A stretch of 63,723 nt of DNA, filler included, from Xylographa opegraphella (lineage: Eukaryota): assembly GCA_022813865.1 (NCBI GenBank). It is 5 parts of 5 records of this genome, joined end to end, with 100 filler letters (N's around TTAATTAATTAA, not from the genome) between each part and the next. Parts side by side here need not be neighbours in the genome. Positions count along the whole stretch, not along the records: positions 40,311 to 53,345 come from JALDZX010000163.1; 4 more parts are not named here. One strand, written 5' to 3'. The notes under the pieces are model-generated. The model was not told the origin of the DNA. It worked only from the letters and a program-made list of their open reading frames with translations, and did no database searches. Made by a program: the position numbers and the translations under genes. Of the stretch, positions 4,634 to 53,923 are shown one piece after another (position 1 is the stretch's first letter; every line of letters starts with the position of its first letter).

Positions 4634-6140
4634 ATGGCTAATTCTCAGCGCTCTTGCATAGGCTTTGTTGGGCTAGGTGCTATGGGATTTGGAATGGCCA
4701 CGAACCTGGTCAAGCGGGGTTATTCAGTGAAGGGGTTTGACGTCTACCCACCCACTGTGCAAAAATTTGGTGACGCAGGTGGACTCATGGCTTCATCCCT
4801 GGCTGAAGCTGCAGAGATGTACTGTATTTGCATGGTAGCAACACCAGCACAAGTTCAGTCTGCCTTGTTTGATGTGGAAGGATCGCTGTCTAAATGTATG
4901 TTTGTTCTGTTATGAGAACAGTAATGTCATTCCTGAAGATATAGAACGTCGCCAGCGCACTGACACGATGAGGACAAGAAAGCTCTCCCCAAATATGCCA
5001 CGTTACTTCTCTGCTCGACTACTCCTTCGGTTTATGTCCAGTCTGTTCAGGCAGAGTTAATGCGTAAAGGGCGCGATGACATCTTCCTGGTTGACTGTCC
5101 CGTATCGGGCGGCGCCACGCGAGCCGATGAAGGCACGTTATCCATCATGGCTGCCGGTTCAGACAAGGCCATTCAAGCGGCAAAGTTTTTGCTCGAAGAG
5201 ATGTCTGGGACTTGCAGATTGGCAATCGTCCCCGGAGGTATCGGCGCAGGAAGCGATATGAAAATGGCACACCAAGTGCTAGCCGCCATACATATCCTTG
5301 CTGCAAATGAGGCGATGGGCCTAGCATCGAGACTGGGTCTGGATGTATCGCAAACTCGAAATTCGATTGTGAATTCTGAAGCTTGGAGTTTTATGCATGA
5401 AAACAGATCGCCACGGATGTTGGAACAAAAGTATATACCACCAACCAGTGCATTAACAATTATATTGAAGGACGCTGTACGTTGAGATTCCGTCAAAAGG
5501 GGCCTATGGTGAAATGTTGCGTGGCTAATCAATGTTCCATGCCTCGAAGGGGATAATTACCTCTATGGCTCGTCTCCGACGATTTCCTACTCCGCTCACG
5601 TCAACAGCCGAGCAAGTATACCTTTCAGGCCTCTCGCGTGGTATGGGCCCGGAAGATGATGCTGGATTAATCCGACTTTATCTCCAGGAGCCCGGTTTAC
5701 AACAGGTCTCGAGTCCTAAAGCAGCTAAGAGGAATTCTGCCTCCGATATGAAACTTGTCATCTCGCTCCTCAGGGGCATACATCTTTGTGCTGCTGCTGA
5801 GAGCATTGCTTTTGCCGACCACCTTGGGCTCAACCTATCGCAATTCTTCGATGTAGTGAATTCTGCGGCGGGTGGAAGCTGGATCTTTCGCGACCGCGCT
5901 CCAACAATGATCGCAAATCACGGAAAGCATCAAAAAACTGAATGGATCATGCATGATAGGCTGAGCAACATCAAAACTTCCGTAGATAGTATGTCAGCCG
6001 TTGTACAAGCAGCAAGAGACGTCAATTGTCCGCTATACCTCGGCAACGCGGCGCTCAACATTCTGCTGACCATGAAACATAGGGGCTGGGACGAGTGTAC
6101 GGATGAGAGCGTAGTAAAATTTTGGGGTAATCAAACGTAG
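4634..6140 (+). CDS. Beta-hydroxyacid dehydrogenase (3-hydroxyisobutyrate/6-phosphogluconate dehydrogenase family) with duplicated C-terminal NAD-binding domain; 2 introns
   Basis: GFVGLGAMGFGMA Rossmann motif, DCPVSGG, GAGSDMKMAHQ; GT-AG introns at about 4896-4982 and 5477-5549 restore one frame. Confidence 0.88.
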
Positions 6141-14945: not shown

Positions 14946-15229
14946 ACGAGCTCTAAAAAAATCAAAAAATCAAAAATACGCTAAAATTATAAATTATAAA
15001 TTCGAAATTTATTTTAAATATTATTTTTTATCGCTTTTATCGTATTATATTATTTATCATTTAAACTTTGTATTTATTATAAATTCAAGATATATTATTA
15101 TTTACGATTATTTTTAATTTTTAATTATAAATTTTATCGCTATATGATTATAAAATTTAAAAAAATATATCGTTATATAAATTATGAATTTTGAATTTAT
15201 TATTATTAATAATTGAATATTTAAAGTAA

Positions 15230-15435
15230 TCGATCAAATATTATTTTAATCGAATATTATATTCGATTAAATAATATATACGTAATTATGTTAAATTTTA
15301 TATAACTTTCAAGTAATTTATATAATTAACGTTATTTACATAATTTTCACAATAATATAACGTTTTTTATATAATTTATATTATACTGATTAATCATCTG
15401 CATTATGACATATTATTACATAATTCAATACATTG
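15230..15435 (-). repeat. Island-border repeat, copy 1
   Basis: Reverse complement aligns with about 44860-45085 and 38392-38530. Confidence 0.75.
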
Positions 15436-15440
15436 ATATA

Positions 15441-15882
15441 CAGCGAATTCCTCGACTGACTTTAACGCACCCCTGTAATTCCCTTGTTGTACCCTTTGTC
15501 CCCTGCTTTGTCATTATTCTCGGCTGACCCTAGTCTGAAACCCTAAAACGCGTAATCCTTCATAAAAGTTACGCACGCAGTATCATTATTATCCGCAGTT
15601 TTCTTCTTCCTTTATAAAGCCCTATAATTCCGTCGCAATTTAAGCTTGACCCTTTCTATTTCGAGTTTTTAAAAGGACTTTTCTTTTATTAAAACAGCGC
15701 ATAACAAATACGTAATTAAGACAAAAATAACGATAAAAAACGTTATTGACTGGTAATCGTATAAATAAACCAATTAAAATACGAAAAGCAAAGGTCAGCC
15801 GAGGAATAGTAACAGAACAGGGAACACGGGGTACAACGGGGGAATTACAAGGGTGCGCGAGGGTCAGCCGAGGGATTCGCTG
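15441..15882. mobile_element. MITE with about 90-bp TIRs
   Basis: CAGCGAATTCCTCGACTGAC... and ...GTCAGCCGAGGGATTCGCTG; each TIR carries a CTCGGCTGACC-like motif twice; flanked by CATTGATATA / CATTGACACA. Confidence 0.85.
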
Positions 15883-38391: not shown

Positions 38392-38530
38392 AACATATAT
38401 TAAATTATGTAATAATATATTATAGTATAGGTGATTCATCAATATAATACAATAAATAAAAACGTAATCATTTGGTAAATATTACGTAAATAACGTTGAT
38501 TGTATAAATTATTTTAAAATTACGTAAAAT
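38392..38530 (+). repeat. Island-border repeat, copy 2
   Basis: AATTATGTAATAATATATTATAGTATAGGTGATTCATCAATATAATACA aligns with the 44860 and 15435 copies. Confidence 0.7.
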
Positions 38531-41044: not shown

Positions 41045-42064
41045 ATATTACGTAAAATTTCATATTAAAATGAAAATCTCATTGTTTAATTAAATTTTGA
41101 AAGTAATAAAAACTAGCGATTTAATAAACACGAGTAAAAATATTAAAAATAACATTATTCAATAAAATACTGTTTATATTATTTAAAAATAATGTAAATA
41201 TTAATCTGCTTTAAAATTAACGTAATTATATATAAAAAAATTTCTAAGCAATTTTCTTACCCATGTTAATAGACGATTCAATAAAATATTAATTTTATTA
41301 TCTTAATTTCATTCATTCATTTCAATTAATGCTTTATTATAAAAACTCGAAAGCTTTTATATAAAAAAATTAAATTAGCTAAGTAATTATTGAACGAAGC
41401 GTATAAATAAACGGTTTATATTATATGTAACATTTATTTAAACGAGTATTTTATTATTTAATTATTTAAAATTTAAAAACATCATATTAAATATTAAATA
41501 ATGCGAAATATTTTTTGAAATAATATTATCTCGAATTTCATTATAAATATTTTACCTGTTTTAAACGCGGTTAAGATTTTATAATTATTATATAAATTCA
41601 ATTCGAGCTTAAAATTAATTATAAACGCAAATGAACGTTATTTATTAAAATAACTATTTCGAGTCGTCAAAGAATTGTTAATATTAATAATAAATATATT
41701 AAAATGAATTAACAATTTTATTACAAGAAATAAATAAATACTTTTCTATTGAAATTTAATTATAAAATAATTTAAATTCATAAAAATGATAAGGTTGATC
41801 TTTTACATTAAAAGTTAAAGAGTGAATTTTGAACGTTTTAATTTTTATTTTATAATATTATATTTTCTGTGAAATTGTTTATAATATAAAATTAATATTT
41901 TTAATATAATAATATTTGCTTTTTATGAATATTGAAAAATGTAGTAACGTACTCAATTTATCGTCGATGTAATGAGTTGCAAACGAGCGTGTTTGCTCAT
42001 TTTGCACTTAGTTTTGAATGCGTTTGCAATCATGATTTCAAACATTGTTGATGGTTGGTTGAAA

Positions 42065-43208
42065 ATGAACTCAAGGCGTATATGCTCAGTTATACAAAGC
42101 TCCGCCACTTGCGTCACGTTGAGAGTTAATCAATGCAGAACAAATGTTTCTCAGCATATCGTGAGAGCTCAGCAACGACGTCTTGCTCACAATCCCGCAG
42201 ATAGCCCCGACTTTCTATCGATTGTGGACCATCCACCAACTTTGGTCAAGAGTGGAAGGCGCCATGGATATGGCCTTATTGTATTAGGTTCAAGGTCGTC
42301 CCGTTTGATTCATTGGTGCCATTCGACTGATCAATCTCAAGCTATTATACCCACAACAGCTTTTGCCCTTGGTACATGGCAAGTATTCAGGCTCGGATGG
42401 AAGACCGAATTGATAGCAAGGTTTGAAGACCGATTAATCCGAGAGCCATTACCTCTGCCCCTCCATATCGATCCCGCGGCAGTTAAAGACTTCGACTACA
42501 GACGCGTATACGCTTCTGGGCATTTACGGCATGATCAAGAAATGCTTATTGGGCCTCGGATGCACGATGGGAACAATGGGTACCTGGTTGTTACGCCACT
42601 CGAGCGAGAAGGTTCTGGGACTACTGTACTTGTCAACCGAGGTTGGATACCGAAGAAGCTTCGAAGGCAGGTGGATCGTGAGGAGGGCTTACCAACCGGC
42701 CAAGTTGTTATCGAAGGGCTGCTGCGTGAGCCGTGGAAAAAGAACATGTTCACCCCAGACAACAAGCCAGAACACGGAGAATATTACTTTCCTGACGTCC
42801 AACAGATGGCTATGATTACAAGTAGCCAGCCGGTCTGGATAGAGGAGACCATGGGTAATGGACTCATACCAATATCATGGCCAAATGACGACTAACCTGT
42901 GATGCAGAGCCAAACTTGCTCAAGGCGTATGATCGAGAGGTTAGAGGAATTCCAATCGGCCGTGCAGCCGAAGTGAATCTGCGTAACAACCACACCCAGT
43001 ACATCTTCACATGGTATGTCCCTGAAATTGAAAGTTCTTCATTATGTCAGCATTTATCAAAGGAACACATCCATCGCTAGGGCGTTATACTGACCAATGT
43101 TTATGCAGGTACGCACTATCAGCTGCCACCACAATCATGCTGTGGATGGTGGTTCGAAAATCCCCGTCAAACATGGCCCGCAAAGTCAGGCAAAACAAGG
43201 AATGGTGA
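42065..43208 (+). CDS. SHY1: SURF1/Shy1 cytochrome c oxidase assembly protein; 3 introns
   Basis: AFALGTWQVFRLGWK, FDYRRV, EMLIGPR, VLVNRGWI, NLRNNHTQYIFTWYALS. Confidence 0.93.
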
Positions 43209-43246
43209 CGGAAACTATTGTTTTGGCACCCGTATTTCTTGTCTAT

Positions 43247-44786
43247 TTAAATTCCAGTGGCATGTTTCTGTCTTGAGTGAATGTTTCCGTACGGTGCCAT
43301 TCGGATGTCCTGGAGCGGTTCACTCGGAAGACACCATTGTGCCAAGAATAAGGGTGTGGTTTGAGCTGTCAGAAATCGCTGTCTGTTGTCATGTTAGTAT
43401 TGACCACATATGCCCATAACAACTCCAACAGGACGTGCCTCTTCATTAAAACTACGACATCTGTCTCATCAACAGTTCTTTTGTTTGCATGTTCCGCGTA
43501 AGCACCTAGATCAGCGCCAACTTGCTCAGAAAACCAATGAGTGCCCTCCTTTATTGCTGCAAGAGTGTCCTTCATTTTAGTGTTTTGCGTAGTAACGGGT
43601 GGGGCGAGCGAAGTGGAAAGCATGTTGACGACAGATTCCGGAACACATGGGTATATTATCCCATGACGTGACAGCTTCCTGAGCCTAGCCTTCCTGTTCC
43701 GAGCGAATGCGGGCTTCTTGTTTGGGGATAACAGCAAGTCTCGATCCATCTTAGGATTGGAATTCTCACCGGTCCTGGTTGAAAAGTTCCAATTGGATGT
43801 GGACATATGGCCACTATTATGTAATTTCACGGGAAGATTGAAAGCAAATTCGGTTTCAGCGTCTTCGCGGAGTATACTCGGAATTTCAACTCCATTTTGG
43901 AGGCCGAAATGGTCACTTGATATGTTACCAGTGATTCACATAAGATCCTCGGCGTTTGTGCTAAATATTGCTCACGACTTGAGGAAGGCATTCGGAAGGG
44001 TGAACATACCCCAGAACGATAGCCACTCCCAGGTCATCTACATCAAATCCATGCTCCACTCGGTTGATGATATCGTCACCAATGATATTTTGGTCATATG
44101 TTGCGTGGACATCAGATTCGCCTATATTGCTGATATAATCGTTGACAAGAATGCTCGGTAAAACTCCACTTGATCGCGTTGACAGAGGTTGTTCACCGAA
44201 TGCTCTCCTTGGCTTCGCTACAGATCTCTCGATATCCGGATATTCTTCCAAAGGGAAGGAAGACGTGCCCGTGGAGCTCGAAAGCAACTTTCATCTTCCT
44301 CTTCAAATTCATGAATTGGCATTGAGAGTCTGGGTCTAGGCTTGTCATCTCCGTCTACTGAGAAGGCTCGCTCAATAAGCGCCACAGCATGTCTTGAAAT
44401 TTGCGCCCCCTTTGAAGTCGTTACGATTGGCTCGGTGGATTTGGACAAAACTGTATATCAGAGCTGTTAGGTACTCGTTGGTTCACTATTGGGAAGACCA
44501 TACCAAACATACTCTTACTCAGATGCCGTAAAGTATCCCGAGGTGACTCGCGGTATTGGTAGCCACTACTTCGGCGAATTTGTGAAAGCGCCTGTGTCGC
44601 TGTACGACGGTGCTGTAATGCTCGGACAGTGTAAGGTGTGATCGGAGGAGCTCTAAGGGCTGGTGTTGAATAGGGAAGTCTGTCGAGTCTGGATGCTGGC
44701 AGTTGGCTGTCTGGTGTCGTGTCAACCACTTCGCGCGCTGGGAAGGCTTGAACGGGAGCCTAAGACCTTCGCGAGGTCAACGACAT
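43247..44786 (-). pseudogene. CENP-T (Cnp20/Cnn1-like) histone-fold kinetochore gene with two in-frame stops and a frameshift
   Basis: C-terminal SRHGIIYPCVP...WFSEQVGADLGAYAEHANKRTVDETDVVVLMKRQR is a CENP-T-type histone fold; N-terminal TPYTVRALQ...ESPRDTLRHLSK and PRPRLSMPI motifs; TAG at 44760-44762, frame change near 44258, TGA at 43936-43938. Confidence 0.75.
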
Positions 44787-44859
44787 TTGTGTGATTACTG
44801 AGTAATTCTGCCTGCGATCAACGGTTTTGTAAACTCAGACTATATGAGAAAGCTTGTTA

Positions 44860-45085
44860 CAATGTATTTTAATTATGTAATAATATGTTATAATGCAGAT
44901 GACTAATCAGTGTAATACAAATGCATAAAGAACGTGATATTATTGAAAAGGCTACGTAAATAACGCTGAATCATTAAACTATTTTAAAATTACATAAAAT
45001 TACGTAAAACTACGTATATAGTATTTAACTGAATATAATATTTGATTGAAATAATATTTAATCGATCGATTTAAATATTCGATTA
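44860..45085 (+). repeat. Island-border repeat, copy 3
   Basis: CAATGTATTTTAATTATGTAATAATATGTTATAATGCAGATGACTAATCAGTG, the least mutated copy. Confidence 0.75.
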
Positions 45086-45372
45086 TTTGTCATGAGCAAT
45101 GTGAGTTTTTTGTGTAAATAAAGAAAATGATAAATATTTATGGAAACGAGCTTTATTTTTTACACGAACTTTTATTCTTTATACTTTTTTTGCTCAAATT
45201 ATAAATTATAAATATTATTTAAATTATTAATTTTTTGTATTTGTTTAAAAATATATTAATTAAATTCATTTATTTTAATATTTTTTTCAGGTTTTAATTT
45301 ATTATAATCGTTTAATATTAATATTGATTTCGATTATTATCGTAATTTTTTAATATAGAAATATTCCCCGGT

Positions 45373-50754: not shown

Positions 50755-52834
50755 TATTACGATCCTGCTTCTCACTAGTATAATTCGATTAAGGATCTGG
50801 GTTGAATTCGTTAATGAATAAATATAAAGGCACGATAACAGTTTAATCGTTCTTTAAGAATAACAGTCTTCATACAAGGGGTTTGTATTGAAGTTTACTA
50901 TTCTAAGATTATAACATGAGTTGAATACGCCTTTTACAGTAAGGAGATCCTTCGTTTTATATAGAAGTCCTGTTTTAAAATATTTTTTATGCCTTTCATG
51001 CCTCCGTGGACGAGGCTATAAAAACGACAGAGGCATCGGGTTATAGTTTCCCCGATCCCTGTTTTATACAGTATTAATCAGAACCTTATTACTAGCTCCC
51101 CCCGCCAGATTCTTGCTCCGAAAGAATTCCAGTTGCTTCTCTTTATTATGCTTAAATATAAATCTTTCAGTTTCTATCGTCGAAAGGTCCAATTCTTTAA
51201 TATTCTTGAAAAAAGGAAAATTCGCAATGCATCCCTGCGATCGCTGTGTTAAGGAGGGTGTTTTGTGCCAGATTTCTGCAGACTCTGATTTTTGCGCATA
51301 ATATGTTGAGGTGAAGGCTCGTTGTTCGTTAATCATTACTGATGCCGATAGAAAGGCATTGAAAGAAAAGAAACGTCGTTTTTGTAAGAAAATCGCCCAA
51401 CTCGAGGCCAGTATCAAGGCAACGAGGGTTAAGGCGGCTACACTAGTAGCTCGTAAGGTTGCGAAACTCGCAGCTAAAAAGAATCGGCTTCTGAACCTTA
51501 AGAACGAAGGTCGTGCGATGTTTCAGCGAGAAATATTTAATATCGAGGCCCTAAAAGAAGACGAAAGTCGAGAGGTTCTGTTTTTTATCAGCGGTCTTTT
51601 CGAGGTTTTTTCTTCTTCTTTTTTTCCTGGTTTTTTAAAGGTTTCTCTTTCTGAGATCCTTGTCCTGCTTGGTGAAATCGTTAAAGAAACTCCTGACAGT
51701 TCCCAAGGCTAGTAAATGGTTCCCAAGTATTGTCCGACTCTGGGTAATTTTTCTATTTAATTAAATAGCTCTGACCTTGTTTATCCAGGATTTTTTCCAC
51801 TTTAAATTCCTGTTCTTTTTCCTTTTTATATCGAAAGATTGTTTATACTAAAGTACTGGCGTCCGCAGGTTCCAATAAGAATATATAAAACACTGGGTGT
51901 ACTCTCGCATCTTTTGGCAGGTCGAGAAAATAATTAACTAATTCTCTGACTTGCTTGATTAAGAATAGTTCGACTTTGACGTAATCGAGCTTCTTGCTTC
52001 GATTCTTGCTGATTTTCAAATTCTTGTAAAAAGGTATATTTTATCCCCCTTCTTTAGTTAAGGTCCATTTTTGGCATTTTTATATCTTTTTGTAGCAATC
52101 TTGTCGTTGCTTTGCTCAATTTTCTTGAATAATGCCTTAGGCGTAATCTTTAAATCTTTGGTTAATATTATTGCTTTGTTTGCGTTAGGTCCCGACTTCT
52201 TTTTTCTGAACAATTAAAAATGATGTCCTGAATTTGCGAAGAAAGGCGATAGTCCTGTTATTGCAGATTGCTTGTCATTTAATACCAGTTGTCTCAAAGG
52301 CAATAATAATATTTAATTATTTTGTTTTGAATTTATAAAGTGTTGTAGATATATTTTCAAGTTCTGATGTATTCTTTTAGTTTGTCTATCTGTCTGTGAA
52401 TAATAAATTATTAATATTTTAGTTTAACTTCTAGTTCAAACATTAAAGTCTTTCAGAAATTGAATATAAATAATTTATTTTTATCGAAAGTAATTTCAGC
52501 TGGGAAACCATAGTCTTTTACAAGTTTATTTAATAAATGAAATGCCAACTGTTCTGCCGTAAACGTTTTTTAAAGGGAATCATAATTAAGTATTTCGTAA
52601 GTTTGTTTACAAGTATCATTATCGAGTTGTACTTTTGTCCTGTTATCGAATCCTCTGATTTTGGCAATTTTGTAATAAAATCGATTAAAATCTGTTCCCA
52701 TGGTTTGTTTGATACTTTTGAAAATTAAATATTTTTATACACTGCGTGTCTCGTTGATTTATTCTTTTGACACGGTATACACTTCTTGATATATTCTTTT
52801 ATATATTCTCTTATGTTTGGGAATTCATAGTTTT
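50755..52834 (-). mobile_element. 3' half of a chromoviral Ty3/Gypsy element (integrase, chromodomain, PPT, 3' LTR family D 50755-51091), moderately RIP-mutated
   Basis: Minus strand gives KEGDKIYL, LDLPKDARVHPVFYIFLLEPAD, chromodomain EFKVEKILDKQGQSYLIK*KNYPESDNTWEP; purine tract GGCGGGGGGAG next to the LTR. Confidence 0.88.
51113..51712 (+). pseudogene. Antisense accessory ORF of the chromovirus: Zn2Cys6-like cluster plus coiled coil, one RIP-type stop
   Basis: ORFs 51113-51301 and 51311-51712 share a frame: CDRC-x6-C-x8-CA*Y-x6-C followed by a Lys/Ala/Glu-rich helix. True start uncertain. Confidence 0.7.
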
Positions 52835-53445: not shown

Positions 53446-53781
53446 AAATCAAAAATCAAAAATCAAAAATCAAAAATCAAAAATCAAAAATCAAAAATCA
53501 AAAATTTAATGAATTCGAGACGAGCTTTTCTGGCGTTTTTAAATTTTAAATTTTTTATAATATTTATATAATAACGATAAAATAGAAGAAATTCGATAAT
53601 AATTAAATGATTTTATTTTATTTTATTTTTTATCGAACGAATAGTTTAAATGAATAAATGAAACTAAAATAATGAAATTAATACTTTATTAAATCATCTG
53701 CCAAAATGCGTAAAAAAATTGCTTTTTTGAAAAAGAATTTTTGTTATATACGATTAGGTTAATTTAACGATTATTTTAAAT

Positions 53782-53923
53782 TAATAATTACGTTAACTTA
53801 ATAATTACGTTAATTTAATAATTACGTTAAGTTAATAATTACGTTAATTTAATAATTACGTTAATTTAATAATTACGTTAAGTTCATAATTACGTTAATT
53901 TAATAATTACGTTAATTTAATAA
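53782..53923. repeat. 17-bp minisatellite (TAATAATTACGTTAATT), about 8 copies
   Basis: Tandem array. Confidence 0.9.

Follow-up and report, generated by a model that had tools for sequence, protein, structure and literature searches.

A probable recent pseudogene of CENP-T at its ancestral position beside SURF1 in Xylographa opegraphella

Introduction

Does the gene that lies on the minus strand at positions 44786-43247 of the Xylographa opegraphella DNA analysed here (a stretch of 63.7 kb, hereafter the window) still encode the kinetochore protein CENP-T, or has it died? Two main bridges connect centromeric chromatin to the Ndc80 complex, which binds microtubules, and CENP-T is one of them. 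Vertebrates require it, yet it is dispensable or absent in some lineages. For fission yeast it is described as essential (PMC9252888), and an account of the Basidiomycota states that CENP-T and most CCAN proteins have been lost there recurrently (Sridhar et al., 2021; PMC7794384); loss of CENP-T as such is already known in other fungi. No report of its loss in Lecanoromycetes or other Pezizomycotina was found in the literature that was covered, outside which most subscription journals fall.

Results and discussion

Identity and structure of the gene

The first-pass annotation had taken the gene for an orthologue of CENP-T, and this was borne out by a C-terminal match to the Pfam family CENP-T_C that lies above the Pfam cut-off. 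Exon 3 matched positions 1-75 of the 108 positions of the PF15511 profile (63 bits against a cut-off of 28.1, E 3.2e-17), to which exon 4 added positions 76-106 (19.6 bits). In a word-based search among longer proteins, which gave two relatives out of 396 candidates, the proteins of Xylographa pallens and X. trunciseda were 56% and 50% identical to the gene, respectively. When 1.84 billion representatives were searched exhaustively with HMMER, 459 proteins came up at E <= 0.001. The nearest kin of the gene were Xylographa proteins, at 50-58% identity, and neither the word-based nor the exhaustive HMMER search turned up a protein whose identity to the C-terminal piece exceeded 58%. The organism's own SURF1 was also absent from the protein collection (best match 85%), which makes the protein searches uninformative on the existence of a CENP-T paralogue.

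The gene is read in four exons. Exon 1 (44513-44786) begins with an ATG at 44786-44784 and contains the conserved N-terminal motifs ITPYTVRALQHRR and ESPRDTLRHLSK. Intron 1 (44451-44512, 62 nt) has a GTATGT donor, a CTAAC branch and a CAG acceptor, and its splicing gives ..RHLSK|ILSKS.., an exact match with the relatives. Exon 2 (44010-44450) carries the PRPRLSMPIHEFEE motif and a conserved RLS..EEY.D.ERS..PRRA motif. It is followed by intron 2 (43961-44009, 49 nt), with a GTATGT donor and a TAG acceptor; a clear CTRAY branch was not found in this intron by eye, and the sequence P0005 reads through its position. Exon 3 (43439-43960) covers the middle of the protein and the initial three quarters of its histone fold. 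Intron 3 (43383-43438, 56 nt) has the GC donor GCACGT, a TACTAAC branch and a CAG acceptor, and exon 4 (43247-43382) encodes the last helices of the fold (QRFLTAQTTPLFLAQ..LQDIRM) and ends with a TAA stop at 43249-43247. The N-terminal motifs ..TPY..RALQ.RR.. and E[ST]PRDTLR.LSKIL align with those of seven relatives. The conserved N-terminal region of CENP-T reportedly recruits the outer kinetochore; for the present gene the binding itself is predicted.

The first-pass annotation had listed the GC donor of the last intron together with the lesions of the gene, and this part of it did not stand. In the distant metagenome loci described below, this intron has the same position and phase in 7/7 cases, all with GT donors, three of the seven loci carrying one same sequence. 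The spliced model of P0006 is left unspliced at intron 3 and continues as ..RRHVLP, and P0019 continues as ..KRHC. Because histidine is encoded by CAY, the second base of the intron in both read-throughs would be C. This suggests that the GC donor is common to intact relatives, or at least to one of them. As a separate observation, a GC-AG intron corresponding to 43383-43438 seems to be shared in the CENP-T fold by some relatives (P0006, P0019 and P0001), and it has apparently spoiled public gene models: that of P0006 ends at the ..RRHVLP just mentioned and the C-terminus of the X. pallens model is aberrant.

Position next to SURF1

A SURF1/Shy1 gene lies at 42173-43208 on the plus strand, its 5' end being the start of the homology match. 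It is intact and convergent with CENP-T, so that the two genes stand tail to tail with their stop codons 38 bp apart. Its best match was the SURF1 of Lignoscripta atroalba (85% identical), followed by those of other Ostropomycetidae. Together with the CENP-T matches, this places the source of the window near Xylographaceae, among lichen-type ascomycetes. A metagenome scan yielded seven loci (L001-L007) that encode CENP-T relatives, the best of them 48% identical over the fold; L003-L005 look near-identical, which leaves about five distinct loci among the seven. In all seven, which belong to distant Pezizomycotina, SURF1 was located just downstream of CENP-T on the opposite strand, as in the window, and no tblastx match between the window and these loci was found outside 41900-44900. 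The pairing of the two genes in 7/7 loci and in the window implies that the broken gene occupies the ancestral locus. The convergent CENP-T/SURF1 pair is also a handy synteny anchor for tracing divergent CENP-T genes.

Lesions in the reading frame

The lesions were mapped by tblastn with five relatives and by a MAFFT alignment with seven. All three fall where the sequences of X. pallens, X. trunciseda and P0006 (406 aa) are aligned and encode protein. The first is an in-frame TAG at codon 9 (44760-44762), which is aligned to G in X. pallens or to R in P0006. It falls in a poorly conserved stretch of the alignment, and the eight codons ahead of it still resemble the N-terminus of the relatives (LTS.R). 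The second is the loss of one base from a Ser codon (CTT|CC|TTC, 44258-44260), by which the frame is shifted: ..FRAPRARL ends with CTT at 44262-44260, CC follows at 44259-44258, and then comes TTC CCT TTG GAA GAA TAT, or FPLEEY. Beyond the shift the reading resumes as FPLEEYPDIERS in another frame, the two pieces overlapping by one base (44260). At this site the relatives have R-A/T-R-L-S-I/V (RARLS[IV]..EEY.DVERS), and since they keep the Ser, one base of its codon is missing from the window. The shift breaks the RLS..EEY.D.ERS..PRRA motif, whose conservation extends to distant Pezizomycotina (P0018, P0021, P0019 and P0023). The third lesion is an in-frame TGA after intron 2 (43936-43938), aligned to the Q/R of EDLR[QR]MTG, a site that is Q in three relatives and R in one. 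The ATG in its ACAAATG context, the TAG at codon 9, the one extra T near 44258 that mends the frame and the TGA past intron 2 had all been proposed from the DNA beforehand, and each was recovered here, the T by alignment to the Ser codon of the relatives.

With these interruptions (TAG, one-base deletion and TGA) no uninterrupted coding sequence joins both ends of the gene. In the spliced model exon 1 is devoid of any further ATG after the first, and the longest ATG-started frame is 167 codons long and encodes the histone fold only. A normally spliced mRNA cannot encode a protein in which the N-terminal part, for binding to the outer kinetochore, is united with the histone fold at the C-terminus. 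The gene resembles the CENP-T/Cnn1 (S. cerevisiae)/Cnp20 (S. pombe) family in its PF15511 fold, its fungal N-terminal motifs, the intron position in the fold and its SURF1 neighbour; it differs in that its frame is broken three times and its normal mRNA would give no full-length protein. Recoding mechanisms were considered and rejected. Selenocysteine insertion or reassignment of stop codons was ruled out by the other checked genes of the window, which are free of in-frame stops when read in the standard code, and programmed -1 frameshifting was ruled out by eye, CGU CUU CCU not being a slippery heptamer.

Sequencing runs and neighbouring genes

One of the three sequencing runs listed (X1) contains the CENP-T stretch. 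Its Logan contig of 4380 nt, with a word depth of 164.1, spans 43150-44900 without a single deviating letter or gap. A check of the lesions against raw reads had been called for earlier, and all of them are present, with 0 differences, in this independently built contig. Assembler error is thereby excluded as their source; a mutation private to the sample is compatible with the contig. Run X1 may be the sample behind the assembly of the window, in which case all DNA evidence would perhaps come from one sample. Run X2 contained one 35-base piece of less than 90% likeness and run X3 gave no match to the CENP-T stretch, so that neither run informs on relatives.

The neighbouring genes served as controls. 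Of the 111 G+C-rich open reading frames (ORFs) of at least 70 aa, 105 were compared with Pfam, the six that overlap CENP-T being left out. By Pfam and ORF reading, which is coarser than tblastn, ATG4, KGD2, an ABCD transporter, a JJJ1-like gene, H2A and RPL20 were found in collinear pieces. SURF1, studied by tblastn in the same way as CENP-T, was collinear and without stops. The statement in the first-pass annotation that other genes of the window are free of such lesions thus holds for those checked, SURF1 by tblastn and six more by Pfam and ORF reading.

Selection and age of the inactivation

The CENP-T gene of the window deviates at nine of the 31 columns that are conserved to at least 80%, compared with a mean of 2.4 among 149 relatives, one of which reaches nine. 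When 34 conserved histone-fold columns were considered, the window deviated at 11 and intact close relatives at 8-11. Private changes at positions where at least five of the other seven sequences agree numbered nine in the window and 2-7 in each of the others. Among individual sites, the TP ahead of RRSSG, invariant in 7/7 relatives, is AL in the window, and the ASDWF of the relatives is GTHWF. In relative-rate counts the private changes of the window were at least as numerous as those of the relative in 12/12 comparisons, with one tie, and p = 0.005 was reached in one of the six tested. These are weak signs that selection on the gene may have been slightly relaxed.

In the CENP-T coding sequence 4.1% of single substitutions create a stop. 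At this rate two stops and one indel fit a neutral divergence of a few per cent. The sequence between the lesions is as relative-like as that of an intact gene and the splice signals have been kept, from which the inactivation would be young. This suggests that the locus is a young pseudogene.

A recently inactivated CENP-T gene and its alternatives

Taken from the reading frame, the best explanation is that the gene is a recently pseudogenised orthologue of CENP-T (Cnn1/Cnp20), located where it was ancestrally, tail to tail with SURF1. We give this reading a probability of roughly 0.68. The stop at codon 9, the deletion in a motif conserved in Pezizomycotina and the second stop ahead of the histone fold would together leave no full-length frame. 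What counts against pseudogenisation is that CENP-T is essential in fission yeast, which makes its outright loss unexpected, that the signs of relaxed selection are weak, and that splicing could in principle circumvent two of the three lesions.

The latter point leads to the view that the gene still works and that its RNA avoids all three lesions, by splicing combined with read-through, editing or a near-cognate start. We consider this improbable. The TGA would be dropped by use of a candidate acceptor AG at 43916-43917 on the minus strand, which would skip exactly 15 codons in frame; it is the first AG past the TGA, a GGTAAC lies about 10 nt upstream of it and the 49-nt intron 2 is the one without a clear branch, but the 15 skipped codons are coding in four relatives. 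A cryptic intron over the deletion would have to restore the frame. There are 15 GT/GC..AG pairs capable of this, and one of them (44268-44213, 56 nt, donor GCACGT) equals the real last intron in donor hexamer and length. However, a CTRAY branch is present in 0/15 of these candidate introns and all of them remove conserved residues; moreover, the GCACGT at 44268 merely encodes the conserved A-R of RARLS, and removal of 44268-44213 would delete a motif conserved throughout Pezizomycotina. The TAG, finally, would have to be read through, edited from UAG to UGG or bypassed. Its U-A-G context suits the known preference of mRNA editing in fungi. Correction of UAG has been described in 71 pseudogenes (PMC10776026), and the window gene is like these Sordariomycetes genes, restored by sexual-stage A-to-I editing, in being a conserved gene with a premature TAG. 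It differs from them in that UAG stops should be the only lesions of an editing-restored pseudogene, whereas here a TGA and a frame shift are added, which are beyond editing. In fungi such editing has been reported from Sordariomycetes and Pezizomycetes alone, where it acts on UAG (PMC10776026); a frame shift is outside its reach. The sequence between the lesions is still well conserved, as a working gene would predict, but the rescue needs three independent unusual events.

It is more improbable still that the species as a whole is not fixed for the lesions, which would then be read-consensus errors or mutations private to the isolate, for instance from long-term culture. The stretch comes from a single run that is perhaps the source of the window, and contigs mask rare variants, which would accommodate this view. 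Against it, a different assembler produced the same letters at a word depth of 164, substitutions account for two of the lesions, and where the deletion occurred the T run is just two or three bases long. Besides, three hits in a 1.4-kb gene and none in SURF1 are unlikely as random error, and an isolate would tolerate them only if the gene were already dispensable.

The weakest alternative, to which we assign little credence, is that all the locus now produces is a short protein with the histone fold, translated from an internal ATG (the frame of 167 codons that begins with MSTSNW at about 43830), which would keep the chromatin role of CENP-T-W-S-X without the outer-kinetochore link: this frame is the longest ATG-started one, its fold scores well above the Pfam cut-off and the signals of the last intron are intact, but twelve ATGs lie upstream of it in the full mRNA, private changes occur at conserved sites of the fold and we know of no internal promoter for the CENP-T locus.

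Consequences of a CENP-T loss

Pseudogenisation of this gene is to be distinguished from loss of the protein. A second CENP-T copy was not found within the 63.7-kb window by tblastn with five relatives or by self-blastn. The gene is without a RIP signature while the repeats of the genome are RIP-like, which would speak against a recent duplicate. A second, intact copy elsewhere in the genome is rather unlikely, though it has to be reckoned with. That the present gene is the sole CENP-T gene of the genome and is being lost now is a tentative proposition, somewhat below an even chance, and the suggestion of the first-pass annotation that the lineage is losing CENP-T, with a rewired inner kinetochore, is a plausible hypothesis of about the same standing.

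Should the gene be the sole copy, we would have here a filamentous ascomycete, a Lecanoromycetes-like lichen fungus, that abandons the CENP-T linker, the first such case to come to our notice. Its kinetochore would rely on CENP-C/Mis12 or on a substitute, as happens in those basidiomycetes in which bridgin evolved; if no second copy exists, the link from centromere to Ndc80 must run through CENP-C/Mis12 alone. The loss described for Basidiomycota (PMC7794384) is alike in that a fungus possibly without the CENP-T linker relies on CENP-C. That account concerns genes absent from basidiomycete orders, whereas here an ascomycete retains, at the ancestral locus, a recognisable gene that was apparently broken only recently. 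An orthologue so newly disrupted at this position would date the loss event precisely, and it would be a natural experiment on how an ascomycete kinetochore that contains a CCAN functions without the CENP-T linker. With an intact paralogue or a rescue at the RNA level, the locus would be an ordinary pseudogene or an annotation curiosity.

RIP and the upstream repeat

Leakage of RIP from repeats into adjoining single-copy genes is known from the Neurospora and Leptosphaeria literature. RIP was scored with the generally used thresholds, i.e. TpA/ApT above 0.89, (CpA+TpG)/(ApC+GpT) below 1.03 and a composite index above 0. RIPped DNA had been placed about 75 bp from the start of the gene, and RIP-like DNA was indeed found close by: the edge of an AT-rich repeat (44855-45087) lies 69 bp upstream of the CENP-T ATG, and the AT-rich blocks, which are diverged repeats of each other (73-88% identity), have a positive composite index. 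Exon 1 alone is mildly RIP-like, with a composite of 0.30-0.45, and its windows at 0.38-0.45 rank in about the top 5% of 245 genic windows; an index of at least 0, a lower bar than the values of exon 1, was reached in 33/245. In the nearness of the RIP-like repeats and in this mild signal of exon 1 the gene is like known cases of leakage. It differs from them in that the indices of the whole gene are normal (0.63, 1.23 and a composite of -0.60, like other genes and outside the RIP thresholds), that exon 1 is 55% G+C and that a GC-to-AT bias is absent. The 43 private amino-acid changes relative to three relatives implied 12.3 GC-to-AT against 8.0 AT-to-GC transitions, in which no GC-to-AT excess was found, these counts being unpolarised and of low power. 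The earlier derivation of the TAG from CAG by RIP leakage was not confirmed, as the TAG aligns to G/R, the composite of the gene is negative and the GC-to-AT excess is missing. Leakage of RIP is neither needed nor supported for the gene; it may nevertheless have produced the TAG.

The repeat could have acted in another way. Its insertion 69 bp from the ATG may have crippled the promoter first, after which the coding lesions would have piled up without selection; this sequence of events is a weaker part of the proposed explanation.

Several further features of the window were noted. One repeat terminus (78-82% identity) flanks three gene islands, at 44855-45087, 15208-15442 and 38396-38530, and a small number of element families, present in copies, make up the AT-rich blocks. 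Some short repeat pieces are 97-98% identical (26205-26387/62206-62388, 14812-14945/28086-28219 and 1-127/14712-14838); they may be young copies, or conserved ends spared by RIP. Between AT-rich blocks a small island of 40% G+C at 51000-52000 is RIP-like, with a composite of up to 0.79, and contains two ORFs of 136-152 aa that have no Pfam matches, perhaps a gene that is being degraded by RIP. At 53753-53923, within an AT-rich block, shifted self-matches of 89-93% reveal a tandem repeat whose period is about 17 or 34 nt. Finally, the 3-hydroxyisobutyrate-dehydrogenase-like gene at 4634-6137 on the plus strand matches NAD_binding_11 twice, in successive ORFs of different frames (profile positions 1-77 and 4-120), which may reflect a domain duplication, a domain split by an intron or a broken gene.
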